40,433 bases of DNA from a virus. The notes beneath the pieces were generated by a model. That model was not told the DNA's origin and searched no databases. It saw nothing but the letters and a program-made list of their open reading frames with translations. A program made the translations under genes and the position numbers. Positions 1-40,433 of this stretch are shown here, one piece after another; the stretch's first letter is position 1; every line of letters starts with the position of its first letter. The stretch lies in IMG/VR virus record IMGVR_UViG_3300030361_000020. The stretch is one strand, 5' to 3'.

Positions 1-127
1 CGATCTTGGTGGTGATATATCGGCAGAGGTACAAGCAAGTCAAAATCTTGATGCTTGGGGTGAAAAGGCTGATTCAATATCTAAGTCTGTTGATATTACA
101 GCCAGCGCAACAGAGAAGCTTGTTGGC
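1..127. repeat. Left copy of the 127-bp exact terminal overlap
   Basis: cgatcttggtggtgatatatcggcag...gagaagcttgttggc is identical to 40307..40433. It lies inside the tape-measure ORF. Confidence 0.95.
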
Positions 128-21124: not shown

Positions 21125-21136
21125 GTGTGGTATAAT
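21125..21136 (+). promoter_or_regulatory. Extended -10 promoter for the lipoprotein gene
   Basis: TGgTATAAT (TG at 21128-21129, TATAAT at 21131-21136). It lies 28 nt upstream of ATG 21165. Confidence 0.55.
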
Positions 21137-21164
21137 TTACCATCAATAAACGGAGAGTAAACCA

Positions 21165-21764
21165 ATGAAGAAATATCTAATCGCATCTTGCGTGTCAGTA
21201 TTGGCGCTATCTGGCTGTAAGAGCACAATTGAAGGTTTGCTAACTTCTGGTGCAGAGAAGGCGCAAGAGCAAGTATTTGCCATGCAGCATCAAGAAGAGT
21301 TCACGCTAAAGGCTACGGCTGAATTCAAAGAGAAAGGCTATGCTGTTTGCTTGACTAACGGCGAGGCTATCGCGTCGATTGATGAGCTTAATGAACACGG
21401 TTCAGCTATCGGAACTAGCGTTAACGGAGTGGTAACTACTCGCGTTAAGAATGGCTATCTAATCGTGCGAACACCACAAAGCGAAACTCACGTTAAATTC
21501 GAGCCTGATGCAAATGCCTATTCCGGCGGTAGCTATGTAGAAGTGCGTGAAACCGATGTGTACCTATGGGGCATTCGACACCCTATCGACTGTATCACTC
21601 AAAAAGTAGAGCGTGACCTTGCTGATATGGAGTATGGCGCTAATAAATTCGACCAACCAGTCAAGGCAAGCAAAATCAAAACTCTCGTTAATGAGCAAAT
21701 GGAAATTTTAGGTCGAGATAAGGTTTACGAGCTTGAGGTTCATTCTGAAAGGAGTAATTTGTGA
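21165..21764 (+). CDS. Lipoprotein
   Basis: MKKYLIASCVSVLALSGC has a lipobox (LSGC) after a signal sequence. ACGGAGAG lies upstream. Confidence 0.75.
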   Translation: MKKYLIASCVSVLALSGCKSTIEGLLTSGAEKAQEQVFAMQHQEEFTLKATAEFKEKGYAVCLTNGEAIASIDELNEHGSAIGTSVNGVVTTRVKNGYLIVRTPQSETHVKFEPDANAYSGGSYVEVRETDVYLWGIRHPIDCITQKVERDLADMEYGANKFDQPVKASKIKTLVNEQMEILGRDKVYELEVHSERSNL

Positions 21765-21955
21765 CTGTTTACTTTATTATTATATTCTGTTTTACGTGCG
21801 TTATTCTTGCGCTAACACCTGTAGCTACCGTTCGCATTAGTAGAGGCTATCTTCATGATAAGCCTCGTTGCAAAGATGCATTGCCCACAAATTCACTGTC
21901 TCGGGATGACTTTGTTGGTGGAATGATTAGCATGCTTAAAAGCGAAATCGGCTAA
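21761..21955 (+). CDS. Small membrane protein
   Basis: GTGA overlap with the previous gene. N-terminal TM segment VYFIIIFCFTCVILALTPVA. Confidence 0.5.
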   Translation: MTVYFIIIFCFTCVILALTPVATVRISRGYLHDKPRCKDALPTNSLSRDDFVGGMISMLKSEIG

Positions 21956-21973
21956 TAAAACAAAACTAAAACT

Positions 21974-21996
21974 AGCGGCCAATTGGTCGCTTTTTT
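21974..21996 (+). terminator. Intrinsic terminator
   Basis: AGCGGCC-aatt-GGTCGCT (one G-U pair) followed by T6. Confidence 0.75.
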
Positions 21997-22002
21997 ATTA
22001 TC

Positions 22003-22011
22003 TGGTAAAAT
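22003..22011 (+). promoter_or_regulatory. Extended -10-like element upstream of terS
   Basis: TGgTAAAAT begins 6 nt after the terminator T-run. The layout matches 21125-21136. Confidence 0.4.
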
Positions 22012-22034
22012 AACCTAGTGTTTTAATTGGATGA

Positions 22035-22484
22035 ATGTGTATGAGTAAGAAACTAACAGACAAGCAGGAGGCGTTTTGCAAAGAGTATCTTATTGACCTT
22101 AACGCCACTAAAGCAGCATCAAGAGCTGGATACAGCGAAAAGACCGCACAGGAGCAAGGATCGCGTTTGTTATCAAATGTTATGATCCAAGATAGATTAG
22201 CGGAATTAAAGGCAGACAGAGAGAAAAGGCTTCAAATTGACGCTGATTGGGTTCTTAAGCAGGCTGTAAAGGTTCATGAGAGGTGTATGCAGGCTGAGCC
22301 TGTAATCGTCGGTGGAGAGCCAACAGGAGAGTATAAGTTTGATTCTTCTGGAGCCAATAAAGCTTTAGAGCTTGTAGGTAAACATGTGAATATTCAAGCG
22401 TGGAAAGATAAGGTTGAATCAACTGTCACTCATAAGACCGATGAGCCTCTATCTGTGCGCCTATCTGGTGGCTCTAAGCGATGA
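22035..22484 (+). CDS. terS: Terminase small subunit (Terminase_2-type)
   Basis: KLTDKQEAFCKEYLIDLNATKAASRAGYSEKTAQEQGSRLLSN is the hallmark N-terminal HTH of this family. ATG 22041 is an alternative start. Confidence 0.8.
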   Translation: MCMSKKLTDKQEAFCKEYLIDLNATKAASRAGYSEKTAQEQGSRLLSNVMIQDRLAELKADREKRLQIDADWVLKQAVKVHERCMQAEPVIVGGEPTGEYKFDSSGANKALELVGKHVNIQAWKDKVESTVTHKTDEPLSVRLSGGSKR

Positions 22485-24043
22485 TTAATCACGAGATAGC
22501 AAAGAGCTATCTAGGTAGAATTGATGAGCTGACGTTTGATGAGTTAGCTGACGCCATGACATACAAATGGTTTCGGATGAATACGCTTTATCACATCAAA
22601 GATAAGAACGGTAAAAAGGTTCTGTTTAAAGCTAACGCTGAACAGGAGAGCTTTTATATAAATCAGCATTGCCGAGATATTATCCTAAAAGCACGTCAGC
22701 TAGGCTTTACCACGTGGAAGATGATAAGCGATCTTGATGACTGTCTATTTACTCCAGACTTCGCCGCTGGCTGTATATGTCACAACCTTGAAGACGCGAA
22801 GGACATATTCAGGAATAAGATTAAGTTTGCTTACCAGAACATAACGCAAGAGCAGCGAGAGCTAATTGCTGAGCTTGGCTATGATCTGCCAGTGCCAATC
22901 AATGACAAAGATAACGGCTACGTATTCAATAACGGCTCATCAATAAAAGTGTCCGTTTCGTATCGTGGCGGCACTCTTCAATCTCTTCATGTATCCGAAT
23001 TCGGTAAGATATGTAAAAAGTACCCAGAAAAGGCGAAAGAGATTGTTACTGGTGCGTTTGAGTCAGTAGCCGCTGGCAATACTATAACCATCGAATCAAC
23101 TGCTGAGGGTCGCGAGGGTTACTTTTATGAATACTGCAAGGAAGCAGAGCGCAGGCAAAAACTTGGTGACTCTCTTTCTGTTCTTGATTTTAATTTCCAT
23201 TTCTTCCCCTGGTATCTGAATGGCGATTATGCGATTGAGCCGAACAGGTCTATTAGTGATGAGCTTACAGCTTACTTTGATGGACTTGAATCTAGGCTTG
23301 GTATTGAGATAAGCGAGAAGCAAAGGGCTTGGTACGCTGCCAAGGAATCAGATCTGGGTGAGGATATGAAGCGCGAGTATCCATCAACACCGAAAGAGGC
23401 GTTTGAGCAATCGCTCGAAGGCGCTTATTATGCTCGACAATTCACTAAGATTTACAAAGAGGGTCGGATTTGTGAAGGGTTCAATAATAAAGAGAAAGTA
23501 AATACGGCTTGGGACTTGGGTGTTGGTGACTCAACTGCAATATGGTTCTATCAAAAGATTAACAATGAAATCCATCTTATCGACTATTACGAGAATTCTG
23601 GTGAGGGCTTAGATCATTACTTTGGAGTGTTAAAGAAAAAGGGCTACGACTACGGTCGCCATTATGGGCCTCACGATATAGACAACCGAAGTTTTGAGAA
23701 TGGCGGGAGAACAAGAAAGCAGATAGCCGCTGATGGCTTCGATATTGACGGGCATAGATACAAGGTTAAGTTTCAGACAGTTCCTAGACTTTCTATTGAT
23801 GACGGAATACAGCACGTCAGGAAGATATTGGACAGGTGCGTATTCGATAAGGATAAATGCGAACATGGCGTTAAGTGCTTAGAGTCATACCGTAAAGAGT
23901 GGAATGATAAATTAGGATGCTATCGTGACAGACCACTTCACGACTGGGCCTCCCATGGAGCTGACGCTTTCAGATACATGGCGATAATGGAAAACAAACC
24001 AGAAGTTAGCAAAAATCCGATTAAATTCGGCGGCTACCAATAA
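22481..24043 (+). CDS. terL: Terminase large subunit
   Basis: ATGA overlap with terS. It has the deviant Walker A ILKARQLGFTTW, the ATPase motif IESTAEGREGYFY, and the nuclease motifs WDLGVGDSTAIWFYQ and ASHGADAFRY. Confidence 0.9.
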   Translation: MINHEIAKSYLGRIDELTFDELADAMTYKWFRMNTLYHIKDKNGKKVLFKANAEQESFYINQHCRDIILKARQLGFTTWKMISDLDDCLFTPDFAAGCICHNLEDAKDIFRNKIKFAYQNITQEQRELIAELGYDLPVPINDKDNGYVFNNGSSIKVSVSYRGGTLQSLHVSEFGKICKKYPEKAKEIVTGAFESVAAGNTITIESTAEGREGYFYEYCKEAERRQKLGDSLSVLDFNFHFFPWYLNGDYAIEPNRSISDELTAYFDGLESRLGIEISEKQRAWYAAKESDLGEDMKREYPSTPKEAFEQSLEGAYYARQFTKIYKEGRICEGFNNKEKVNTAWDLGVGDSTAIWFYQKINNEIHLIDYYENSGEGLDHYFGVLKKKGYDYGRHYGPHDIDNRSFENGGRTRKQIAADGFDIDGHRYKVKFQTVPRLSIDDGIQHVRKILDRCVFDKDKCEHGVKCLESYRKEWNDKLGCYRDRPLHDWASHGADAFRYMAIMENKPEVSKNPIKFGGYQ

Positions 24044-24046
24044 GAA

Positions 24047-24072
24047 AACCCCTCAAGCGAGGGGTTGGTTTT
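24047..24072. terminator. Bidirectional intrinsic terminator between terL and the convergent minus operon
   Basis: AACCCCTC-aagc-GAGGGGTT, followed by GGTTTTAT on + and TTTTCTTA on -. Confidence 0.75.
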
Positions 24073-24250
24073 ATATGTTTCTTCCAATTTCACGACATTT
24101 ATCATAAAAACAATTATGCCATATTACGCAATTCTTTTTGTGGTGACGGTAAGGGTTGTCTTTAATTCTGTGTTTATATACGCTAATATTCATTCCTATC
24201 ACAACCTTCTTTATTGCCATTTCTTCTGCAAGCTTTTTAATTTTATCCAC
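24071..24250 (-). CDS. Small Cys/His-rich protein; 59 aa, not in track
   Basis: GTG 24250 lies 5 nt after AGGGTG and 2 nt after the upstream stop. The product is (M)DKIKKLAEEMAIKKVVIGMNISVYKHRIKDNPYRHHKKNCVIWHNCFYDKCREIGRNI. It replaces the antisense track ORF 24065..24475. Confidence 0.45.
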   Translation of the reverse strand: MDKIKKLAEEMAIKKVVIGMNISVYKHRIKDNPYRHHKKNCVIWHNCFYDKCREIGRNI

Positions 24251-24252
24251 AA

Positions 24253-24501
24253 TTACACCCTCGCCGACAATTTTCCATTTAACCTTTCCTTAAGCGTCAG
24301 TTTTCTCTCTGCTAACGCCTCTTTGTTTTCGATTGGAACAATTCTTAACGCACACGTATCAAATTTGGATTGGCGCTCATTCATCAATACTAGCCCTTCC
24401 TTTAGTGCATCATCTTCATTTCTAGCATCAAGCTCATACACATCAAATCCATTGCTTGAAACGTGCCAACCGTGAATAACAGCTATAAATCTCACAATCA
24501 C
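24253..24501 (-). CDS. Hypothetical protein
   Basis: 82-aa ORF with a GTG start overlapping the upstream stop. GTG 24495 has better spacing to GGAGG and is an alternative start. Confidence 0.6.
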   Translation of the reverse strand: MIVRFIAVIHGWHVSSNGFDVYELDARNEDDALKEGLVLMNERQSKFDTCALRIVPIENKEALAERKLTLKERLNGKLSARV

Positions 24502-25160
24502 ACCTCCAGCTCAACTTCAACGCATTTCCATTCGCTAGGCTTCAATATCGACGCGATCAACTCATCCCTTGATGCATAGTGCTGAGTGGTTAGACTGTTT
24601 CCATTTGCGCCAATCCAGCGCTTTTCCTTGCGTGGCTTGATGCGAGTTTGGGTGTTCTCATCCATGTACCACCAGCTATTATGCCATGTCACATCGTCAC
24701 CATAGTAAGGGACGCATTCCGCCCACGAATCATCTCCTTTGTATTGCACTTCTCCACCGTTTAATGCGTGCAGCACTACTTCTTTGTGCTTTGGTAGGCA
24801 AATGAAGTATTCATTCATGTACCAATCAGGAAACCCATTTACTTTAATCCACTTGTCGTCATACTTAGCAAAAACAACCAAGCCCATATCGTCAACCTTG
24901 GCCTTAATCATTTCAGCGTGCGGGTGTTTGTTTGTCATTGCTGTTTCCTTTAGGCTTACTAGTTCGTTGATTCTGCTTTCTGGCATTAACCCCCGCCTTT
25001 CCCATACATCATGTTTGTCATTGCACAAAAGTGAAAGCCAATCTCCATCTTCTTTTTTATACCAACTTGCGTAATGCTGTTCCGTCTCTGGCCCAAAAAA
25101 CTGCGCATCTTTTGGTTGAGGTGATAGTGATTGCTCTGGTTTAGTTATGTGGTTAGTCAT
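24498..25160 (-). CDS. Trp-rich hypothetical protein
   Basis: 220 aa. GGAG lies 7 nt upstream of ATG 25160. The product has many W/Y/H residues. Confidence 0.7.
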   Translation of the reverse strand: MTNHITKPEQSLSPQPKDAQFFGPETEQHYASWYKKEDGDWLSLLCNDKHDVWERRGLMPESRINELVSLKETAMTNKHPHAEMIKAKVDDMGLVVFAKYDDKWIKVNGFPDWYMNEYFICLPKHKEVVLHALNGGEVQYKGDDSWAECVPYYGDDVTWHNSWWYMDENTQTRIKPRKEKRWIGANGNSLTTQHYASRDELIASILKPSEWKCVEVELEV

Positions 25161-25161
25161 T

Positions 25162-25560
25162 TTATTTCTCCAATAGCTCTGGGTTTTGGTGAATATTGCC
25201 GATTACTTCTATCATGTACAGCTCATGCAAATTGGGCTTTCTGCCAAAATACTGCTTAACTCCTGCTGCAACAAATGAGCAATAAGTAGTAGAGAATTTA
25301 ACCTCACCAATGCATCGAGTCATAGCTGCGCCACTTCTAACCCTACACTTAACAACATCCCCCTCATAAATCTCAGCGCCGTTTTTGTCTTTTAATCCGG
25401 TGTATTGCATTAACTTAGCATCTTCGATACTTGTCGATACGTCTGTACCATTCTCGAAATATACTTCGTCATGCATCCAGTCGATGGTGCACACGTTGTC
25501 AATCTCAATACCGTTACGAAATGCAGTATTGATACCACGAAGCTTAATTTCTCTACTCAT
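25162..25560 (-). CDS. YopX-family protein
   Basis: ATG 25560 follows GGAGAG. LMQYTGLKDKNGAEIYEGDVV and the C-terminal IEVIGNIHQNPELLE are hallmark YopX motifs. Confidence 0.75.
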   Translation of the reverse strand: MSREIKLRGINTAFRNGIEIDNVCTIDWMHDEVYFENGTDVSTSIEDAKLMQYTGLKDKNGAEIYEGDVVKCRVRSGAAMTRCIGEVKFSTTYCSFVAAGVKQYFGRKPNLHELYMIEVIGNIHQNPELLEK

Positions 25561-25612
25561 TTCACTCTCCATTATCAATTTTATTGTGTGTATTTAGTGT
25601 TAGCTTGCGATT

Positions 25613-25641
25613 AATATAAACTTGACATTGGTTAATTGCAA
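25613..25641 (-). promoter_or_regulatory. Candidate leftward promoter of island 1
   Basis: On the minus strand, TTGCAA-N17-TATATT. It overlaps the rightward promoter. Confidence 0.5.
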
Positions 25642-25650
25642 GTCAATAAT
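25622..25650 (+). promoter_or_regulatory. Candidate rightward promoter of island 1
   Basis: TTGACA-N17-AATAAT. TTGAC (25622-25626) and GTCAA (25642-25646) form 5-bp inverted arms across the spacer. Confidence 0.55.
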
Positions 25651-25682
25651 GGAATTAATTTAAACAAAGAGGAAAAGCAATA

Positions 25683-25898
25683 ATGCAGATAAACTTTAAG
25701 TCTATTGAGGTTTGTACACTAAAGGATGCGTATGAGCTTCGAGGTGGTAACAAGACGGCTCTTGCTAATGAGCTTGGATTGACGCGCAATACACTTCGGT
25801 CTCATTTGGACTGTGGTGGTCATCAATTGCTATCTGTCGAGTACGCGCTTGACGGAAGTTTTAGCTTTAAGTACATCAACAAAGGGTGGGTGAAGTAA
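25683..25898 (+). CDS. Cro-like small HTH regulator
   Basis: 71 aa. GNKTALANELGLTRNTLRSHL fits an HTH. AGAGGAAAA lies upstream. First gene after the divergent promoters. Confidence 0.6.
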   Translation: MQINFKSIEVCTLKDAYELRGGNKTALANELGLTRNTLRSHLDCGGHQLLSVEYALDGSFSFKYINKGWVK

Positions 25899-25978
25899 TG
25901 GACAAACTAATCGCAACCGCGCTCGGACTAACAATGTTCGTTACTGTTATAGCTGGTGTTTATATGGGAGGGTTTTGA
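25898..25978 (+). CDS. 26-aa hydrophobic micro-protein (single TM); not in track
   Basis: TAATG overlap upstream, and TGAATG abuts the next gene. The product is MDKLIATALGLTMFVTVIAGVYMGGF. Confidence 0.45.
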   Translation: MDKLIATALGLTMFVTVIAGVYMGGF

Positions 25979-26191
25979 ATGAGCAAGCGAATGAGCAACA
26001 AGAAGGTTAAGCAGATGATTTGTGACCAGCTGGTTGATCTTGATAACTCGATTCTAATAAAAGCTTGGTTTGAGAATGGGAAGTTAAGGGGAGTTTTTGG
26101 TTTTCCTTGGGGAAGAAGTACCGCGTTCGTCAAGCATGGAAGAGTCTCACCACTAACCGCCAATCAACTAAAAGGAATTAGCAATGGATGA
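25979..26191 (+). CDS. Hypothetical basic protein
   Basis: 70-aa ORF tightly coupled on both sides. Confidence 0.6.
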   Translation: MSKRMSNKKVKQMICDQLVDLDNSILIKAWFENGKLRGVFGFPWGRSTAFVKHGRVSPLTANQLKGISNG

Positions 26192-26510
26192 TTCGAAGAT
26201 TTATTTAAGCCTCGCGGTTAACGAAGATGGCCAGTTGGTTCCATGTGACCAGTATGGGCGTGAAGTGTACGGCATTATGAGCATGAGCTATACGTCGGAG
26301 CTGGATAGTATTTCAGACTTGTCGATTAAAGCCATATTGCATGACTTCGGCACTGATGAGGTTGTTGGTGGTAGATATATACGAACTGGCACTATCGAAA
26401 CAATGCAGCAACGCGCTCTAACTGAAAGCGAAGTGCTTTCGATGAATAATCATCTAATAGAGCGATTTGATAGAAACCTGGCAGATATGAAGAGAAAGGC
26501 GGCGTTATGA
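26184..26510 (+). CDS. Hypothetical protein
   Basis: 108-aa ORF overlapping the previous gene by 8 nt. Confidence 0.65.
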   Translation: MDDSKIYLSLAVNEDGQLVPCDQYGREVYGIMSMSYTSELDSISDLSIKAILHDFGTDEVVGGRYIRTGTIETMQQRALTESEVLSMNNHLIERFDRNLADMKRKAAL

Positions 26511-26674
26511 TAATTCAAAATGAAAAGGTAGGGGGTATTTGCTTAATCTCTGCGGTTGGGCGTAACTACCAGGCCACCTTACAGTCTGTTGGTGATGCAG
26601 AGCGCATCGTAATCAACGGCAAAGTAAAATCAAGGCGCGTATTGCGTGAGATATTGAAGGAGATGAGAGGTTAG
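26507..26674 (+). CDS. Hypothetical protein; 55 aa, not in track
   Basis: ATGA overlap with the previous gene. The stop lies 1 nt before the next ATG. Confidence 0.5.
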   Translation: MIIQNEKVGGICLISAVGRNYQATLQSVGDAERIVINGKVKSRRVLREILKEMRG

Positions 26675-26675
26675 C

Positions 26676-26903
26676 ATGGACGCATTATTACTTACCCTAC
26701 TTAACTTATGGTTAATTTGCATTTCTGTAATTATTTACCTTGTGGTTGATTACGTAATCGAAATGGCGGGGTTTATTATCAAAAAGCGCAGCGCTCCAGA
26801 CTGCTGCATGTGTGGAGCTAGCGATCCCACTCAATGCTCGAATCACCAATACCTATCTCAGCTAGATTGGTTTGAGAGTAATTTTCGCCCATTAATAAAG
26901 TAA
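26676..26903 (+). CDS. Membrane protein with a Cys-rich C-terminal segment
   Basis: N-terminal TM segment LLTLLNLWLICISVIIYLVV, then CCMCGASDPTQC. Confidence 0.6.
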   Translation: MDALLLTLLNLWLICISVIIYLVVDYVIEMAGFIIKKRSAPDCCMCGASDPTQCSNHQYLSQLDWFESNFRPLIK

Positions 26904-26911
26904 TCAAACCA

Positions 26912-26938
26912 AACCCTGCCTGATATAATGGCGGGGTT
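26912..26938 (+). terminator. Intrinsic terminator closing island 1, with an extended -10 box in its loop
   Basis: AACCCTGCC-tgatataat-GGCGGGGTT, then TATTCTATTT. The loop reads TGaTATAAT (26921-26929), 27 nt upstream of ATG 26956. Confidence 0.6.
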
Positions 26939-26955
26939 TATTCTATTTGGTGGTA

Positions 26956-28104
26956 ATGATGACCGATTACACACAAAAGCAACAAAGGCGAGCAGTTACG
27001 ATTCAGCAGCTTGCTAACAGCATTATTCAAGAGCAAGTCGATAAGATAATGATTGGTGGCGTAATGTCCGCTATTAACTCTTATCTAAATGAAAAAGGAA
27101 TGTCAGAAACTCGCTTTCAATTGAATCAACTCAAGAAGGCGATCGACCAGATTATCACAGAGCAAATGCTTGGTGGGTTTGGTGAAGTCACCGACATTAT
27201 GGAAGAGTTCGCAGTTAAGGAGTCGACGTTTGCTTATTCAGCTTTGGCGGCATCAGGTGCGCCACTTGTAGATGAGTTAAGAAAACCAGCGCGTGATATG
27301 GTTATTGATTACATCGCTCAGTCAGTAATGGATGTTCCTTCAGGTGATAAAGTTCAAGCTGGTTTGTGGCAGGACTATGTCAATAATTACACAGACTCGC
27401 AATCAAAGAGCATTAACCAGCTAGTGCAAAATGAATGGTATCGAGGCTTTCAAGAGGGAAAGATTCCGAGTAAAAGCCAACTGACAAAGCGCGTTAAATC
27501 ATACCTGCAAAATACATCAAAAAACCAGGCAGAGGCCTTGGTTATTACCGGGCTGTCTCACTACTCGCAAAAAGCAAGTGAGGCGTTCAGGGATGATAAC
27601 CTTGATGTGATTGATAGAGAGTACCCGATAATCACGTTTGACACTGGAACGACGGTTACATGCCTTTCTATTGGTTCGAAATATGGAATTAAAGGCTGGT
27701 CTGTAGGTAAGTCACCGATTGGATACCCGCCATATCATTACCGCTGCAGAACGCGCATTGGCTACATGACCAAGGGGCAAAAAGAGCCGTTCGGTGAAAT
27801 GAATGTTCTATCGGGAAAGAAAGGAGAAGATGCAAAAGAGGAATTCACAGAGCGCGATAAAAACAGGCGCACAGCTTACCGAGTTAAATACCGTGGCCGT
27901 CGTGACTTGTCGTTATTCAACCCAGAGCAACTAGACGCAGCTACGCCTATTGCAAAGATACTGCTAGACCAGCCAGACTGGTTTATTAAGCAATCTCTAG
28001 GCAAAAAAGTAGGACAGGCATTTATTGATGGTAAAGTTGACCTTACCAACCTAACCGACAGAAACCTCATGCCAAAGACGATTGATGAAATTGGCATTGA
28101 ATAG
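26956..28104 (+). CDS. Head morphogenesis protein (SPP1 gp7 / Mu F-like)
   Basis: ATG 26956 (track start 26947 is TTG). GYPPYHYRCRTRIGY matches the PPxHxxCRC signature of the Mu F family. Confidence 0.7.
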   Translation: MMTDYTQKQQRRAVTIQQLANSIIQEQVDKIMIGGVMSAINSYLNEKGMSETRFQLNQLKKAIDQIITEQMLGGFGEVTDIMEEFAVKESTFAYSALAASGAPLVDELRKPARDMVIDYIAQSVMDVPSGDKVQAGLWQDYVNNYTDSQSKSINQLVQNEWYRGFQEGKIPSKSQLTKRVKSYLQNTSKNQAEALVITGLSHYSQKASEAFRDDNLDVIDREYPIITFDTGTTVTCLSIGSKYGIKGWSVGKSPIGYPPYHYRCRTRIGYMTKGQKEPFGEMNVLSGKKGEDAKEEFTERDKNRRTAYRVKYRGRRDLSLFNPEQLDAATPIAKILLDQPDWFIKQSLGKKVGQAFIDGKVDLTNLTDRNLMPKTIDEIGIE

Positions 28105-28131
28105 TTACAACTAACTGAAAGGAAAACCAAG

Positions 28132-28512
28132 ATGAACGATAAATCTATCGAGAAAGAAATTAAAGAAAAGAAACTAACCGCGCCGAGAATTACGCCAGAA
28201 CACATTGAATCAGTGATTTTCTCAGAGCACTACTTTACAGCAAGGGAGGGAGGCTTAGGCGCTTACAAGATGAACGGCGACGTATACGTGGGAGACATGC
28301 CGACCAAATTTAGCGATACTGCGCTATCGTGCCTAACATTTTGCGTTTTAGTTCTTCGCAATGGGTTCACGGTTGTCGGTGAATCCGCTTGCGCTTCGCC
28401 GGAGAACTTCGATCCCGAACTTGGGCGCAAAATTGCGCGAGATAACGCAAAAAATAAAATCTGGATGCTTGAAGGGTATAGCCTTAAACAGAAGCTTCAT
28501 GATGAAAAGTGA
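28132..28512 (+). CDS. N4 Gp49 / Sf6 gp66-family protein
   Basis: ITPEHIESVI...CLTFCVLVLRNGFTVVGESACASPENFDPELGRKIARDNAKNKIWMLEGYSLKQKL matches the Phage_gp49_66 pattern. Confidence 0.65.
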   Translation: MNDKSIEKEIKEKKLTAPRITPEHIESVIFSEHYFTAREGGLGAYKMNGDVYVGDMPTKFSDTALSCLTFCVLVLRNGFTVVGESACASPENFDPELGRKIARDNAKNKIWMLEGYSLKQKLHDEK

Positions 28513-28589
28513 AATAGCAAGCAAACTAAAAGGAGAGCCCTGACGGAATGATAACCTTCGTTCCCGTTGGATTCAGAGAATAAAACAAA

Positions 28590-28612
28590 GCCTCACATAG
28601 TGGGGCATTTTT
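28590..28612 (+). terminator. Intrinsic terminator
   Basis: GCCTCA-catag-TGGGGC (one G-U pair), then ATTTTTAT. Confidence 0.6.
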
Positions 28613-28683
28613 ATGCTTTGATATTTACAATGCAATGATAATGCGCTATTGTCTTATTGTTCATTTAAAACAAAGAGGTGAAA

Positions 28684-28929
28684 ATGGAAGAGGTTAAATC
28701 ACAACAAGAGGCTGAGTTCTTCAAAAACTCGGACAAGAAGAAGTACATTATTGAGCGAAATGACGAGACTGGGCAGTATAAGATTAAATACACACTAGTC
28801 GGCATGGTTCCGATAACGCTATTCACAGCTCGCGGACAAGCTCGGTGGTTCAAGAGTTTGGATAAGCTAATTACAATGATGATACTTAAAGGCGTCGAAG
28901 ATTTCGACATTAAACTAAACATCAAATAG
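28684..28929 (+). CDS. Hypothetical protein
   Basis: ATG 28684 follows AGAGGTG. A possible TTTACA-N17-TATTGT promoter lies at 28624-28652. Confidence 0.6.
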   Translation: MEEVKSQQEAEFFKNSDKKKYIIERNDETGQYKIKYTLVGMVPITLFTARGQARWFKSLDKLITMMILKGVEDFDIKLNIK

Positions 28930-28946
28930 CAAGTTGGAGCAACAAG

Positions 28947-29636
28947 ATGACTAAAGAAACAGGATACACAACAAAGCCGATTGAGCTGCCGTTATCGACT
29001 GAGAAAGAGTATGTGCTGGTTGATGTTAGTGGCTACACTCATGCATCAATTGTGAATCATAAGTTAATAAATAGATTTTCCCTTAAGAATCCATTTGAAC
29101 TTGATTACGTTGTTAATGGTGGCGATGGAATGATTGAAGGAGAATGGGTTATTACTAAGGAGGGTGAGCTTGAGTTCTTCCACGAAGTAATCCGCAACGT
29201 CCATCTAAAAACCGAAACGCCAGAAGAGAAAGAGGTGTTTTATGGCATGGAGAACAATTCGGAATCGCCTAATGGTTCGTGGTGGGATGGAGAAGGATTA
29301 CCTCCTGTTGGTGCTGAGTGTGAGTTTCAGTACCCAGAAGGAAGATGGAACGCTGGCTACTACCACGGTAAAACAAAATCAGGAAAATTAAATCTTTATA
29401 TAATTGAGTATAAAGATGGAGAAGTCGTTACCCTTGGTGGGCTAACAAAATTCCGACCAATTGAAACGCCAGAGCAAAAGGAAGAGCGTGAGCGCTTAGA
29501 GGCTGGAAAAGAGCTTTATGAGTTGTATATGTCGAATTGGGATACGGCTTATATTTCGTGGGATGGTCTTGATAATAAAAACAAGAGTGCATTTTTGTCT
29601 ATTGTAGAAAAGACAGGCTACCGCAAAAATGCCTAA
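28947..29636 (+). CDS. Hypothetical protein
   Basis: 229-aa ORF with TTGGAGCAA upstream. The C-terminal tail ...IVEKTGYRK resembles a recurrent phage C-terminal module. Confidence 0.7.
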   Translation: MTKETGYTTKPIELPLSTEKEYVLVDVSGYTHASIVNHKLINRFSLKNPFELDYVVNGGDGMIEGEWVITKEGELEFFHEVIRNVHLKTETPEEKEVFYGMENNSESPNGSWWDGEGLPPVGAECEFQYPEGRWNAGYYHGKTKSGKLNLYIIEYKDGEVVTLGGLTKFRPIETPEQKEERERLEAGKELYELYMSNWDTAYISWDGLDNKNKSAFLSIVEKTGYRKNA

Positions 29637-29838
29637 GCCAGAAATGACCAACGCAAGGATGTGTGAGATTGCATCCTTGCGGGTCAGAAATCAACATCTC
29701 GAACAGTTAGTTAAAGACAAAGATAAGCTACTTCGACGCGCTTATAGAGAGCTAGAAACTCTATCGACTCAATATGGCGACAATAGTAGCAAAGGTTTAA
29801 TAGAAAGAATAAAGCAAGAGGTTGGTGATAATGTCTAA
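29629..29838 (+). CDS. Hypothetical coiled-coil protein
   Basis: 69-aa ORF overlapping both neighbours. Confidence 0.55.
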   Translation: MPKPEMTNARMCEIASLRVRNQHLEQLVKDKDKLLRRAYRELETLSTQYGDNSSKGLIERIKQEVGDNV

Positions 29839-30352
29839 TGACCTATGGAGAACCCCTACAGAAGTGTTTAACATGCTTAATCGTGAGTTTAATTTTATTG
29901 CTGATATGGCAAGCTCTCACGAAAATGCACTTTGTGCACTGCATTACACGGAAGAGGATAATAGCCTTGGCTTTGATTGGTCTAAGTGTCCAGCACTACA
30001 ATCAAACAAGCTGGCGTACGTTTGGGTAAATCCGCCATACTCCAATCCAAAACCGTGGGTTATTCAGGCTACTACTGCGCAGCGGGCTGGGCTTGGCGTT
30101 GTTATGCTGCTTAACTCTGATCACAGCGTTGGCTGGTTTAAAGAGGCACTTCCTTATGTTAGCGAGATAAGAAACATAGTAACCGACGGCACTAAGATTC
30201 AAGGATCTACGACTGGCCGAATTGGTTTTCTTGATGAGAATGGAGAGCCTCAAAATGCAAACTCTAAACCGCAAACAATCCTAGTCTTCAGTCCGTTTAA
30301 GATTGGAACGCAGCAAACAACTTACATTCCAAAGTCATACTTTTATAAATAG
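29831..30352 (+). CDS. DNA N6-adenine methyltransferase (phage Dam family)
   Basis: ATG 29831. DLWRTPTEVFNMLNREFNFIADMAS ... YVWVNPPYS carries the NPPY catalytic motif, and the layout is that of the phage Dam family. Confidence 0.8.
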   Translation: MSNDLWRTPTEVFNMLNREFNFIADMASSHENALCALHYTEEDNSLGFDWSKCPALQSNKLAYVWVNPPYSNPKPWVIQATTAQRAGLGVVMLLNSDHSVGWFKEALPYVSEIRNIVTDGTKIQGSTTGRIGFLDENGEPQNANSKPQTILVFSPFKIGTQQTTYIPKSYFYK

Positions 30353-30360
30353 GTAGAAAA

Positions 30361-31119
30361 ATGAAAAAATACAATACATATCAAGAAGCGAAGATTGAAA
30401 ATAAAAATGATGAAATAGCAACAAATGGAATCGAATTCGCCACCGCAAGATGCTTAAACCTTAGTCATGCATTCAAGTGGAAGATCTGCAATCCTAAAGA
30501 TCACTGCATGACTGTAGAGAAGTTTCTAGCTGATGGTCATAAGTTTGTTGATTGCGATTGCCATACTGGTACGGATGGTGTAGTTAGAGTTGTCGGATCT
30601 GATTATCCAGTAAGCGATGCAAACCTTAGGATTGGCAGCGATCGAAATAGATACATCCTACGCGCCGCAGCGCTAGAGAAAGACAACGCAGATGACCTAG
30701 ACGGCGAAAGCGTAACGGAGTCAGAGATTATCGATTTATCATTAAGTGAAACATTCGACGTAATGCCTAAAGACAACGAAGCGGCAGAGGCTAAGGCGAT
30801 GGCTGAGCATTCACCAAAACGCACAAAAGAAGAGTGTGTGAAGGTTGAGTTTGAACATGCTTGGCAAGCAGTGAAGGCATTTGAAGAAGGTGAGGAGCTT
30901 TTTGTTGAGAACCCGCTTGTATCATCAAGCAAGTATTTAGTTGCTGAGTTTTCATCGCTGAAGTGCGTCGACAAGCTTTACCGCAAAGTAGTCACAGAAC
31001 TAACAGAGCGCGAAGCGTTTATTGAAGCTGCCTGCAAAGTTGTACCAACAACAGCCGAAGAGGACATTAAGGTAATAGGCAAAATGTTCGACTCTGGCAA
31101 GTTCAAGCTATCCGAATAA
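30361..31119 (+). CDS. Hypothetical acidic protein
   Basis: 252-aa ORF followed by a strong terminator. Confidence 0.7.
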   Translation: MKKYNTYQEAKIENKNDEIATNGIEFATARCLNLSHAFKWKICNPKDHCMTVEKFLADGHKFVDCDCHTGTDGVVRVVGSDYPVSDANLRIGSDRNRYILRAAALEKDNADDLDGESVTESEIIDLSLSETFDVMPKDNEAAEAKAMAEHSPKRTKEECVKVEFEHAWQAVKAFEEGEELFVENPLVSSSKYLVAEFSSLKCVDKLYRKVVTELTEREAFIEAACKVVPTTAEEDIKVIGKMFDSGKFKLSE

Positions 31120-31142
31120 CCACTAATTCCACAAACTCTCAA

Positions 31143-31179
31143 CCCCTGTTAGAATATAGAAAACTAACAGGGGTTTTTT
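31143..31179 (+). terminator. Strong intrinsic terminator abutting the portal start codon
   Basis: CCCCTGTTAG-aatatagaaaa-CTAACAGGGG followed by T6. ATG 31180 follows directly. Confidence 0.85.
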
Positions 31180-32643
31180 ATGCCACTCAATACAACACAA
31201 GAGCCAGCTTTAAGTTACTTGGCCGAAAGAATTAAAGACGTTCGCACTGTCTGTATGGGTAGTGCGTTCGTAAAAGATGAATCTCTCAGGTTTCTGCCTA
31301 ATCCAGTTAACAAGACGGACGATAGGTCTGACGAGTATCGATCATACCTTCAAGGGGCGCTGCTTGATGATTGGGCGCGCCTAACCCAAAAGACAATGCT
31401 CGGCAAGATGAATCTATCCGAGACTGAGATTGATTTGCCATCCATGAGTTACGTGCAAAACAATATCGACGGTGACGGAATGTCATTGGGTGGATGGCTG
31501 CAAAACTCTGCCAAGTCGATTCTTGAGGCTAAATACGAATGCTGGCTTATCGACTATCGTGGGCTTGCGTCGCTTGACGTCGATAATATTTCCAAGGAAG
31601 ACGCTGAGAAGATTAACCCACGACCACTTCTAAAGAGATTCAAACGCGAGCAGATTGTCAAAGAACCATACTACAGAATGGTCAATGGCAAAAAGCAATT
31701 AGCTTTCATCATGTTTAACGAGTCAACCGAGAAGTTTAACCCGAAACAAGCAACGCGAGTTAAGGTTGATTCGTATCTAGTTCTTGCTTTGGATGATGAT
31801 GGTAACTACTACCAGCAAAGAGTAGTAAACGGTGCGCAAAGTGAACCCCAATACATTCTAAAGAATGGGCAACCTCTGAAATCAATCCCTCTAATTTTTG
31901 CGTCTGACGAAGAGATAGGAACCGAATTGCCAACTGAGCTAGGCTTTCTTTCTGGCATTGTTGATATTGTTTTAACCAAGTATCAAAACTCAGCCAACAA
32001 ATCACGCTTCCTTAAAAAGAAAGTCCCAACCGACATTTTGTTTACTGGTGCTGATGACGGCATTAGTGAAGATTGGCAGAATGCGTTTAACCTTCTTAAT
32101 GGTGGTAGTGAAAATCAGGGTGCTGAATTTAAACTTGGCGGTCTGAATGTCATACCTGGCGAGCAAGCTAAATTCGAGTCTGTTTCGTCTGTTGGCACGT
32201 TAGACGACTACTTTAAAGAAGATGAATCACTAGAAAACCGAGCTCGTCAATTAGGCGCTGTAATTGCACCCAACGAGGCTGTAAAAAAGACGGCTACTGA
32301 GTCATTAATTGACGAAGCTACACGTAACGCTGTAATGCTTCCATTAGTTGCTAGCCTTGAAGATTCTATTAAATGGGTTGTCGCTTACTTTGCTCTATTC
32401 ACATCAAGTGCAGTGAGTGAAGATAATATTGCTGAATATCAATCTAACGTTGACTTTACTATCGATCGAAGCTTTGCAGTTAAGAAGGTTACCGTTGAAG
32501 AAGCTAGATTTATGTTTGAATTGTTTGGGTTCCCTGCACTGACTGGTAGCTCAGATAATCCAGAACAAGCGGCGTTAGATGCCTTCACTAAATGGCTGGA
32601 ATCGAACGGATACGGAAACATTCGCTTGCTAATTGACGCATAA
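31180..32643 (+). CDS. Portal protein (DUF4055-type)
   Basis: 487 aa. The N-terminal third (SYLAERIKDVRTVCMGSAFVK...YLQGALLDDWARLTQKTMLGKM...IDGDGMSLGGW) resembles DUF4055 portals. The gene sits just upstream of scaffold and capsid. Confidence 0.7.
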   Translation: MPLNTTQEPALSYLAERIKDVRTVCMGSAFVKDESLRFLPNPVNKTDDRSDEYRSYLQGALLDDWARLTQKTMLGKMNLSETEIDLPSMSYVQNNIDGDGMSLGGWLQNSAKSILEAKYECWLIDYRGLASLDVDNISKEDAEKINPRPLLKRFKREQIVKEPYYRMVNGKKQLAFIMFNESTEKFNPKQATRVKVDSYLVLALDDDGNYYQQRVVNGAQSEPQYILKNGQPLKSIPLIFASDEEIGTELPTELGFLSGIVDIVLTKYQNSANKSRFLKKKVPTDILFTGADDGISEDWQNAFNLLNGGSENQGAEFKLGGLNVIPGEQAKFESVSSVGTLDDYFKEDESLENRARQLGAVIAPNEAVKKTATESLIDEATRNAVMLPLVASLEDSIKWVVAYFALFTSSAVSEDNIAEYQSNVDFTIDRSFAVKKVTVEEARFMFELFGFPALTGSSDNPEQAALDAFTKWLESNGYGNIRLLIDA

Positions 32644-38795: not shown

Positions 38796-40433
38796 ATGGC
38801 AGACATAGCTAAACTAGGCTTTAAGGTTGACACTTCAGGGTTATCAAAAGGCACTAAAGAGCTAGATAAGTTCAATAAGTCAGGCAATCAAGCTGAATCA
38901 TCAACTGGCAAGTTGAGCATGGCGATCGGCGGTATGTCAAAAGCCGCTGGCGTTGCTGGAGCTGCAATAGCTGCCACTGCTGGCGTGTTATCTGCGTATG
39001 TTTATCAGCTTGGTCGGTCAAGACGAGAGCTTGAGGCTAACGCTAGGCTAGCTGGTGATACAGTTGAAAACTTTCAGTCTCAGGAGTTCGCATATAGGCA
39101 GTTTGGGCTTACCGTTGATAACGTAACTGACATATTCAAAGATGCGCGTGAAAGAATTGGCGAATTTGTAAAGGGAATGTCGGGCGGTCTTGATGATTTC
39201 GGCACTGTGATGGGGTGGTCAAAGGAGCGAACCAAGCAATTTGCAATGGAGCTTACAGGACTTTCAGGTCAAGATGCGTTGCAGGTTATTGTTAGTCAAA
39301 TGGAAATGGCAGGAGCATCCGCTAACGAGATGAGTTGGGCGCTTGAGGGTTTAGGCTCAGAAGCAACCAGAATGATTCCAGCTCTAGAGAATAATGGTAA
39401 TGCAATTAGAAGCCTAACGGATGAGTATTCATCTTTTAATGACGTTTTTAAGCTTGATGAAGCAGAGATAGATAATTACGCAAGGCTAACTAAGAACTTT
39501 GACCTATTCTTAGCTACCGCTGAGAACGGAATGACAAAAGTTATAGCGCCACTCGCTGGACATATGGCTGATTTAGCTATAGCAACAACGCACTTCCTAA
39601 GTTCTCTACAAGAAGGAACCGAGGCAAACGTCGCCTCTGAGCTGGTTGATATTAACGAGCAAATATCAACACTTAATAAGGCAATAGAAGATAACGCAAC
39701 CGCATCAGGGAGAGCAAAAAACGCTTTACTTGGCTTTACTGATGGAACAAGCACAGATAACAACTTCATGAGGGAGCAGATTGAGCTTTTAAAGCAAAGG
39801 CGAGCAATTTTGATGGAGCAGCTCTCGCAAATGAGGACTGGAACTTCTGGGCTAATTGATACGTCAGCTCCATTCGAAATGGAAATCACTTCATCAAATA
39901 ATTTACGAAATGTTATTGTATCAAACAGCGAGGCAATGATAGAGGCTCAAAAGGCATGGGATAAAATGCTTAAAGAAGGCACTTTAGGCATGACAGAGTA
40001 CGTCGACACCTCTACAGAGATCGCAAAGAAAGCTCAAAAGGCATGGGATGAAATGAGAGAGTCTGGAACTCTTGGAGTTACAAGTTTCGTTGATACTTCA
40101 GGAATGATGGAAGATCAATTCATAGAGGCATCCAACGGAGCCATATCTCTTCTTTCATCTATACAAAGGCTTTCTGATGAAGGATCTAGCGCATACAAAG
40201 ACCTAGAACGTGCGATAATGGCGGTCAACATCGCACAGTCTGCCGTTAGTGGAAATATCGCAGGTGCGGTTGCGTCAAGCATTGGCTTGCTAATGTCTCT
40301 TGATAACGATCTTGGTGGTGATATATCGGCAGAGGTACAAGCAAGTCAAAATCTTGATGCTTGGGGTGAAAAGGCTGATTCAATATCTAAGTCTGTTGAT
40401 ATTACAGCCAGCGCAACAGAGAAGCTTGTTGGC
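38796..40433 (+). CDS. Tape measure protein, 5' part (open to the window end, continues at base 1)
   Basis: ATG 38796 follows AAAGGGG. I translated the first ~140 codons and 39945-40100, and both are stop-free. The track lists no + ORF here, and frame phasing fits an open frame to 40433 (546 codons); the rest was not read codon by codon. The N-terminus is MADIAKLGFKVDTSGLSKGTKELDKF.. with a hydrophobic AAGVAGAAIAATAGVL segment, and DIFKDARERIGEFVKG is typical of tape-measure proteins. Absent from the track because it has no stop in the window. Confidence 0.85.
   Translation, partial: MADIAKLGFKVDTSGLSKGTKELDKFNKSGNQAESSTGKLSMAIGGMSKAAGVAGAAIAATAGVLSAYVYQLGRSRRELEANARLAGDTVENFQSQEFAYRQFGLTVDNVTDIFKDARERIGEFVKGMSGGLDDFGTVMGWSKERTKQFAMELTGLSGQDALQVIVSQMEMAGASANEMSWALEGLGSEATRMIPALENNGNAIRSLTDEYSSFNDVFKLDEAEIDNYARLTKNFDLFLATAENGMTKVIAPLAGHMADLAIATTHFLSSLQEGTEANVASELVDINEQISTLNKAIEDNATASGRAKNALLGFTDGTSTDNNFMREQIELLKQRRAILMEQLSQMRTGTSGLIDTSAPFEMEITSSNNLRNVIVSNSEAMIEAQKAWDKMLKEGTLGMTEYVDTSTEIAKKAQKAWDEMRESGTLGVTSFVDTSGMMEDQFIEASNGAISLLSSIQRLSDEGSSAYKDLERAIMAVNIAQSAVSGNIAGAVASSIGLLMSLDNDLGGDISAEVQASQNLDAWGEKADSISKSVDITASATEKLVG
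39945..40100 (+). repeat. Tandem 87-bp (29-aa) duplication inside the tape-measure gene
   Basis: AQKAWDKMLKEGTLGMTEYVDTS and AQKAWDEMRESGTLGVTSFVDTS. A 17-nt exact match, GCTCAAAAGGCATGGGA, occurs at 39945 and 40032. Confidence 0.8.
40307..40433. repeat. Right copy of the 127-bp exact terminal overlap
   Basis: Identical to 1..127 by direct comparison. Confidence 0.95.

Follow-up and report, generated by a model that had tools for sequence, protein, structure and literature searches.

A two-operon accessory island at the variable terL–MuF junction of a marine, Vibrio-type siphophage genome

The window analysed here, i.e. the whole 40,433-nucleotide stretch of IMG/VR record IMGVR_UViG_3300030361_000020, is an entire metagenome contig (JGI 3300038544, Ga0246057_00005) from a marine, Vibrio-type siphophage. 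Between its large terminase gene (terL) and a MuF-like head-morphogenesis gene lies a 2.9-kb island of ten small genes, four on the minus strand and then six on the plus strand. The island occupies a junction that is a variable slot in related phages, and hotspots for accessory genes of this ordinary kind are familiar from many published phage genomes. The block is probably hotspot cargo, organised as back-to-back operons with host-type promoters and encoding accessory products that do not form part of the virion.

The terL–MuF junction in related phages

The window was compared with 17 IMG/VR contigs encoding terL products 62–72% identical to its own (identity with the Pseudoalteromonas phages BS5/HS2 is ~60%). 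Most of the relatives with enough downstream sequence keep the order terL, MuF, portal, scaffold. In the ten relatives in which MuF follows terL, the gap between the two ranges from ~5 bp to 2.7 kb and is filled with unrelated open reading frames (ORFs): the terL and MuF alignments come within ~45 bp of one another in three contigs (L007, L011 and L013), other relatives have 0.2–0.85 kb at the junction, with one to three unrelated small ORFs, and the 2.7-kb gap of L010 holds a minus-strand cluster, including a different small helix-turn-helix (HTH) protein, followed by a plus-strand cluster. Vibrio phage 230E39-1, the MuF of which is the closest from a cultured phage (33% identity), has its terminase, head morphogenesis and portal genes annotated consecutively. 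Thus, because the gaps hold differing cargo or none across the relatives, the terL–MuF junction is a recurrent variable slot.

A first-pass annotation of the window, made from its sequence, had suggested that non-core cargo is inserted here between two genes that are normally adjacent, and had named the conservation of the island genes as core virion components in relatives as the finding that would argue otherwise. The comparison upholds the suggestion: the two flanking genes abut, or nearly so, in the three contigs and in 230E39-1 and are separated by variable cargo in others, none of the ten island products is encoded in the gaps, and the island genes are missing from all 17 terL relatives and from the MuF relatives. 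Since relatives do without them, and since homologues elsewhere occupy early or accessory regions, varied positions (the m220, m59, HTH71 and p70 families in Vibrio phages; names as in Table 1) or comparable groups of small genes between structural genes (Nahant phages, PVA1 and VBM1), the island genes are, on this distribution, not virion core genes. The island further lies at a mosaic joint, because in these relatives terL has kept much more of its sequence (~70%) than has MuF, the window MuF being 24–35% identical to the MuF that follows their terL.

Two other proteins were seen as cargo in other contigs. A conserved protein of 57–77 residues (ELQPHIV...IRxLANGExYxGD...MIRLLA) is encoded in the terL–MuF gap of four of them (L005 11548–11736, L010 8480–8713, L012 10912–11085 and L014 3679–3864, in the last directly before MuF) and is absent from the window. 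A protein of 142–148 residues starting MTTI(A/V)Y is hotspot cargo in two contigs (L035 722–1150 and L012 11082–11528); its start presumably recalls the N-terminal threonine of Ntn-hydrolase/HslV-type proteins, as a candidate likeness only.

Operon layout and control signals

All ten ORFs proposed in the first-pass annotation are present (Table 1). Independent gene callers applied to identical metagenome contigs called nine of them, including m59, which the original gene track had missed; the uncalled one, a 26-residue membrane peptide, is supported by conservation in L035, a 2.2-kb contig that is the single diverged relative of the plus operon. Neighbouring genes in both operons meet or overlap at their stop and start codons, and the GC skew changes sign to become negative exactly across the minus genes. 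As judged by comparison with L035, the small plus-strand ORFs are real genes under purifying selection. The ratio of nonsynonymous to synonymous change (dN/dS) is ~0.09 for p108 (pN 0.19, pS 0.72) and ~0.2 for p55 (pN 0.27, pS 0.67), and the DNA encoding the 26-residue peptide is 93.6% identical in the two, with four of the five coding substitutions synonymous.

Table 1. Features of the island and its flanks, with the wider gene order of the phage
Feature	Position in window	Strand	Basis or content
terL (large terminase), left conserved flank	22481–24043	+	PHROG 2472/26724
Bidirectional terminator-like hairpin, convergence of terL and minus operon	24047–24066	.	8-bp GC-rich stem, scored on both strands; −16.2 / −13.5 kcal/mol, z −4.4 / −4.9 (two strands)
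m59, 59 residues, last minus-operon gene	24071–24250	−	ORF; called on identical contigs
m82, 82 residues	24253–24501	−	phrog_15668, E 7e-27
m220, 220 residues, Trp-rich	24498–25160	−	phrog_27352
YopX-family protein, first minus-operon gene	25162–25560	−	PF09643, TIGR01671
Divergent control region, 122 bp	25561–25682	.	read from sequence
Leftward promoter-like site, back to back over the rightward promoter	25613–25641	−	TTGCAA-17-TATATT, 9/12 match
Rightward sigma-70-like promoter	25622–25650	+	TTGACA-17-AATAAT, 11/12 match, best in 7.5-kb scan
HTH71, 71-residue Fis-type HTH, first plus-operon gene, candidate regulator	25683–25898	+	HTH_8; phrog_35933
Membrane peptide, 26 residues, single-pass	25898–25978	+	hydrophobicity; L035 conservation
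p70, 70 residues, basic	25979–26191	+	homologues in Vibrio phages
p108, 108 residues, acidic, near-orphan	26184–26510	+	two real homologues
p55, 55 residues, basic	26507–26674	+	homologue in L035
p75, 75 residues, N-terminal transmembrane helix and Cys-rich tail	26676–26903	+	hydrophobicity
Hairpin closing plus operon	26911–26939	+	−16.8 kcal/mol, z −3.5
MuF-like head-morphogenesis gene, right conserved flank	26947–28104	+	phrog_241, E 2e-36; likely start ATG 26956/26959
Recombination block	6.6–8.9 kb	−	unknown 329-residue protein, SSB, Sak4
Early/replication region	after recombination block	+	long; NinG, Ant-like, DnaD-like loader, DnaB
Genes downstream of early region, in order		.	terS, terL, island, MuF-like gene, second accessory block, then portal, scaffold, capsid, tail genes

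The two hairpins that the first-pass annotation had placed at the ends of the island, i.e. a bidirectional terminator after terL and a structure closing the plus operon, were both recovered. The latter has a 9-nt loop and a weak T-tract (ATTCTATTT), which explains why a terminator scan missed it. A perfect 16-nt direct repeat (AATGGCGGGGTTTATT) has one copy at 26762–26777, inside the p75 coding sequence, and the other at 26927–26942, as the right arm of this hairpin; none is expected in shuffled sequence, and the copies flank 149 bp only. Recombination at the right-hand edge of the island probably left this repeat behind as a scar.

The divergent spacer is 122 bp, because the YopX start at ATG 25560 is preceded by a Shine-Dalgarno sequence (GGAG); the 104 bp originally given for it applies only if an upstream TTG start is used. 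Sites matching the sigma-70 consensus at ≥11/12 positions occur twice in the whole genome, both intergenic and just 5' of plus-strand genes, and one of the two is the rightward site in the spacer. Since the leftward site overlaps it, RNA polymerase sites for the two directions would compete. The surroundings of the leftward −10 (GCTTGCG..ATTAATAT[A/T]AAC) recur in the L035 spacer, which is elsewhere diverged, and promoters similar to the rightward one lie 5' of the HTH gene in L035 and in phage PVA1 (TTGACT-17-GATAAT). Around the rightward −10 are short, AT-rich inverted and direct repeats, including TTAATTGCA-N9-TGGAATTAA and two occurrences of ATTAAT(A/T)TAAAC. At the sequence level, then, the cassette has plausible promoters of its own in the spacer and a stable hairpin at either end, the right-hand one with a poor T-tract, in partial agreement with the proposal that it carries its own promoters and terminators.

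An extended −10 (TGATATAAT) lies at 26921–26929, within the loop of the closing hairpin and ~20 nt before the MuF start. Its consensus, TGNTATAAT, occurs only twice in the genome, both times ~20–30 nt 5' of a plus-strand gene. Because it is located directly before MuF, this gene may have its own promoter; the terminator-like closing structure overlaps that possible promoter. The genome has many strong plus-strand terminator-like hairpins, three of them within the kilobase before terS, and late transcription may depend on antitermination. The view that the cassette sits inside a late operon is consequently uncertain, given these many plus-strand terminators and the possible MuF promoter.

Products of the ten genes

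Searches of the island products against Pfam, NCBIfam, PHROGs and PADLOC returned only YopX, the HTH and unnamed PHROGs. The first-pass statement that only these two proteins fall into recognisable families is therefore correct for Pfam and not elsewhere, there being matches to PHROGs 15668, 27352 and 35933, and homologues of the 59- and 70-residue proteins (53–61% identity) in Vibrio phages. Of the approaches suggested for characterising the products, hidden Markov models gave families for YopX and the HTH protein, and the predicted folds of m220 and m82 were without a PDB match.

Among the minus-operon products, the first, as first proposed, belongs to the YopX family (PF09643, 77.2 bits against a cut-off of 22.4; TIGR01671, 66.8 against 41.3), a large phage family with PDB relatives (2qyz, 2ox7, 2p84 and 2i2l) that are all uncharacterised, and on which a literature search found no functional study. 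Its closest homologue, in Vibrio phage VBM1 (59%), adjoins a Rha-like regulator and a replication gene. The Trp-rich m220 (11 Trp) has a disordered N terminus of ~78 residues and a conserved C-terminal domain of ~145 residues, the latter defining a family restricted to Vibrio phages (122 records). The family alignment has invariant H79, H81 and C121, in the motifs H(K/P)HAEMIKAK and CLPKH, and a conserved C-terminal IEIEVEV; the invariant His/Cys residues hint at a metal site. In its AlphaFold model, m220 is predicted with confidence over residues 90–220 (predicted local distance difference test, pLDDT, ~90) and is disordered before them; the model has no PDB match at E ≤ 1e-3, and its BFVD matches are only to uncharacterised Vibrio phage proteins. 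An m220 homologue lies on the opposite strand directly after terL in the Nahant phages 1.248.O and 1.007.O and in contigs L044/L045, and is located elsewhere in other phages.

The m82 family (78 residues, 22 invariant columns) is sharply conserved and has members in Dickeya, Pseudomonas and Agrobacterium phages. In Enterobacter/E. coli lambdoid prophages its members are beside Ead/Ea22, between the recombination genes and xis-int; this Ead/Ea22 neighbourhood is a classical early non-essential region of lambdoid phages. The m82 model is beta-beta-alpha-beta (pLDDT 75), with no significant PDB match (E ≤ 1e-3). The basic m59, with 3 Cys and 4 His as its Cys/His-rich description had implied, is 53–59% identical to hypothetical proteins of ~40 Vibrio lentus phages; in 1.194.O its homologue belongs to an operon of small plus-strand genes, from which a cluster of four minus-strand genes runs divergently towards portal, an architecture like that of the island but shifted by one gene.

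The first product of the plus operon, HTH71, had been described as Cro-like. The HTH assignment holds, since the Fis-type family HTH_8 is matched with 27 bits, above its cut-off of 22, and the family assignment does not, since the Cro/CI HTH families in Pfam (P22_Cro, HTH_3 etc.) gave no match; HTH71 may nonetheless repress in the manner of Cro. Its identity is 61% with an unannotated PVA1 ORF, and 39–42% with Nahant 'DNA binding HTH domain' proteins and with the L035 protein. In the window, L035 and PVA1 the HTH gene heads a divergent cassette, the cargo of which differs, in part only between the window and L035. The PVA1 copy opens a plus operon for a 108-residue protein and several small membrane proteins; back to back with this operon are three minus-strand genes running towards the head-tail adaptor gene. 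In 1.216.O and its relatives, five Nahant phages in all, the HTH homologue is instead internal to a co-directional accessory block that follows MuF and includes a DNA methylase.

The proposed transmembrane segments of the 26- and 75-residue proteins correspond to strongly hydrophobic stretches, in p75 at the N terminus, with Kyte-Doolittle maxima of 2.05 (19-residue window) and 2.56, respectively. Exact-pattern DNA scans with the conserved region of the 26-residue peptide retrieved nothing from IMG/VR or the JGI metagenome collection. Apart from its 5 Cys, p75 has no distinguishing match, either to a family or in the phage database. The p70 protein is 55–61% identical to hypothetical proteins of the Vibrio phages VBM1, PvVp04_M and PP270; VBM1 and two other carriers of p70 homologues are V. 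parahaemolyticus phages. When p70 (25979–26191) is aligned with its L035 counterpart (1506–1721), the first 16 and last 12 residues are identical and the middle is unrelated, which is, on this alignment, mosaicism within a 70-codon gene. A full HMMER profile search of 1.84 billion representatives was made for remote homologues of p108, and only two real homologues (P0002 and P0038) were found among these and 5.8 billion clusters. The sole homologue of p55 is in L035 (83% over the C-terminal 35 residues), the phage database giving no match. None of the 50,697 phage records contains p108, p55, p75 or the membrane peptide.

Candidate roles and known counterparts

The 2.9-kb block is probably the cargo of a recombination hotspot at the terL–MuF junction, and its two back-to-back operons would fire from the overlapping sigma-70-type promoters in the spacer. 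Because the promoters are of this type, host RNA polymerase could transcribe the island without phage late factors. The leftward operon (YopX, m220, m82, m59) would converge on terL and stop at the shared bidirectional hairpin. The rightward operon would begin with HTH71, and this first position suggests that the cassette may regulate itself, HTH71 most likely binding the spacer between the operons to control how strongly, or in which direction, they are transcribed. Five translationally coupled small genes would follow, two of them encoding membrane proteins. Rather than building particles, the products most likely act on the host cell or its defences, or hinder competing phages. The layout, the positions of homologues and the cargo of better-studied hotspots suggest that the island would be expressed early and autoregulated, and that it would serve in host takeover, counter-defence or exclusion.

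Several observations weigh against this proposal, in whole or in part. The GC content of the island (0.413) is that of the genome (0.416), so there is no compositional trace of recent foreign origin. Promoter-like sites in the region are no commoner than in shuffled sequence, so that the promoter call rests on position and match quality, and no operator is definable from the three diverged spacers (window, L035 and PVA1), which have only short AT-rich repeats at inconsistent spacing. The plus operon may read through into MuF, given the poor T-tract of its closing hairpin. Late transcripts may also cross the terL hairpin if the phage uses antitermination, as the many plus-strand terminators suggest, in which case the island would be open to late read-through despite its hairpins. 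Finally, PADLOC gave no hit to the island products beyond a sub-threshold HTH match (E 0.016) and, with the m220 and m82 models matching nothing in the PDB, no activity is assignable.

A more specific possibility, to be regarded as tentative, is that the cargo is an early-expressed counter-defence island, with anti-restriction or anti-abortive-infection proteins of small size that would neutralise host immunity. A variable hotspot cassette of small, fast-turnover, orphan-like genes with promoters of host type would be in keeping with such a role, as would reports that phage hotspots and accessory regions are enriched in defence and anti-defence genes (bioRxiv 10.1101/2024.10.15.618418), and that Nahant Vibrio phages are rich in anti-defence genes (bioRxiv 10.1101/2024.06.14.598830). 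However, no characterised family was matched, fold searches with the m220 and m82 models were uninformative, and the accessions and tags of the nameable Nahant homologues were not found in the portion of the supplements of bioRxiv 10.1101/2024.06.14.598830 that was searched. The anti-defence or exclusion role put forward in the first-pass annotation is thus without direct support.

The same annotation had likened the island to a moron. Expression from the prophage is central to the moron concept. It is unlikely that the island is such a classical moron or superinfection-exclusion locus, expressed by a prophage and using its two membrane proteins to block incoming phage DNA. The arrangement of promoter, genes and terminator between two late genes, the pair of small membrane proteins and the occurrence of m82 homologues in temperate Enterobacter prophages all accord with that role. 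However, the exact 127-bp terminal overlap of the window (1–127 and 40307–40433) indicates a complete, circularly assembled phage genome of ~40.3 kb, and among its larger ORFs neither an integrase nor a CI-type repressor was found, the minus-strand block at 6.6–8.9 kb encoding instead the proteins listed in Table 1; the phage may for this reason be virulent. Furthermore, the island has no deviation in GC, and MuF searches of species genomes (185,579) and IMG/VR gave no match and no prophage copy. The prophage-moron reading is accordingly weak.

It is also improbable that the plus operon belongs to the head-gene transcription unit, with its promoter driving MuF and the genes downstream, the small proteins serving as assembly or packaging accessories and HTH71 regulating morphogenesis. 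In favour of this, transcripts from upstream would be kept from reaching MuF by the strong hairpin that follows terL, the T-tract of the closing hairpin is weak, and HTH71-family genes are present inside the head modules of Nahant phages (1.216.O and relatives) and PVA1. By contrast, relatives with terL directly before MuF assemble heads without these genes, the cargo is wholly different between cassettes, and a separate extended −10 lies immediately 5' of MuF.

An autonomous mobile element (a transposon, homing-endonuclease cassette or satellite remnant), which the perfect 16-nt repeat at the right boundary and the presence of related cassettes at differing junctions of unrelated phages might suggest, is highly improbable and was rejected, because the ten products include no transposase, recombinase or nuclease domain, the repeat brackets 149 bp and not the island, terminal inverted repeats are lacking, and cargo genes are found singly in other phages, as fits gene-by-gene recombination.

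With the island thus taken as hotspot cargo, several known systems offer parallels. Morons of lambdoid phages (HK97/HK022 type) each consist of a promoter, a gene and a terminator placed between late genes (Juhala et al. 2000; Cumby et al. 2012; both as cited in bioRxiv 10.1101/2024.10.15.618418). Like them, the island lies between late genes that are adjacent in relatives, has its own promoter-like sites and hairpins (at the sequence level, an 11/12 sigma-70 match and stable hairpins, with a weak T-tract on the right) and carries cargo that is not needed for particles. Unlike them, it comprises ten genes rather than one, divided between two divergent operons and including a gene for a DNA-binding protein, and lacks a differing nucleotide composition; with no detectable integrase or repressor in the phage, prophage expression is unlikely. 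Since the genome is complete and no integrase was found, the island is not a strict moron.

A second parallel is with hyper-variability hotspots, such as old/tin and Z/fun in P2 (Rousset et al. 2022, PMC9122126; iLund4u survey, bioRxiv 10.1101/2024.10.15.618418), with which the island has in common a fixed slot between conserved core genes, content that varies per genome and units set by orientation and terminators. Conserved flanks with differing cargo across relatives, by which a hotspot is recognised, are found at the terL–MuF junction. The P2 hotspots differ in carrying recognised defence systems, whereas the island has no match in PADLOC or to any characterised family, and in their flanks, which are not terL and MuF.

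The nearest concrete analogues are opposite-strand small-gene clusters in the head modules of published marine Vibrio phages (1.248.O, 1.007.O, 1.194.O and 1.216.O, PMC6029569; PVA1). These, like the island, have a minus cluster convergent on terL, portal or adaptor, a divergent spacer and a plus-strand operon of small genes, and they have families in common with it: m220 directly after terL, m59 in the plus operon of 1.194.O and HTH71 heading that of PVA1. The gene sets are otherwise unrelated, and the clusters are annotated as hypothetical proteins only; a non-systematic literature check found no description of them as a class. The content of the island had been thought undescribed. This is overstated, in that published Vibrio phages carry homologues of six of its ten genes, and the same architecture is seen in 1.194.O, PVA1, 1.248.O and 1.007.O.

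The ea/b (Ead/Ea22) and nin regions of lambdoid phages consist of small, functionally uncharacterised genes that are dispensable for growth. The island resembles these early non-essential regions in that the m82 family occurs beside Ead/Ea22, and the closest YopX gene beside Rha and replication genes (VBM1). It differs in that such gene types are displaced into the packaging/head module, with a dedicated promoter pair.

A broader proposal, which we regard as speculative, is that the HTH71-family protein and the overlapping back-to-back promoters constitute a portable, self-regulated scaffold that occurs at differing structural-gene junctions of unrelated marine Vibrio phages and swaps its cargo gene by gene, with the orphans (p108, p55, p75 and the 26-residue peptide) including new counter-defence or exclusion proteins. 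Such a scaffold would follow terL in the window and the head-tail adaptor gene in PVA1, and would have a further example in contig L035.

With regard to the wider phage, the cultured phages nearest to it in terL are siphophages of Pseudoalteromonas, Shewanella and Vibrio (~58–62% identity). A megablast search against the 50,697 phage records matched only a fragment of terS, and a portal search gave a single match (33%). Since neither these nor the MuF searches gave a close genome, there is no near relative with an empty site. The same sequence is present on ~22 contigs from other samples; the 11 island-bearing loci fetched from among these are 100% identical across every overlap with 22000–31200 and are therefore uninformative on polymorphism or natural knock-outs. 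Neither a tRNA gene nor an Rfam family was found in the window.

MuF and portal are adjacent in all relatives examined but 3.1 kb apart in the window, which thus has two filled slots. The second accessory block (~3 kb, 28105–31179) contains an N4 gp49/Sf6 gp66-family gene, a terminator at 28590, three small ORFs, a Dam methylase gene and a 252-residue ORF. Upstream of terS, a 199-residue ORF (21165–21764) without a family match has an N-terminal lipoprotein signal and lipobox (MKKYLIASCVSVLALSGC). Two tandem terminators (20987 and 21091) and an extended −10 (TGGTATAAT, 21128) lie before this ORF, and a further terminator (21974) follows it, just before terS. The region (21128–21991) resembles a self-contained promoter-gene-terminator unit, the product of which may be an exclusion lipoprotein.

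Variable accessory slots in structural modules are well known, and the view of phage genome organisation is unchanged by the present results. If the island is expressed early from its own promoters, it would be a compact source of ten untested small phage proteins, including three near-orphans (p108, p55 and p75) and three members of widespread uncharacterised families (YopX, m82 and m220). The specific terL–MuF hotspot, together with the recurring HTH-headed divergent layout, could guide the mining of accessory genes in marine phages.

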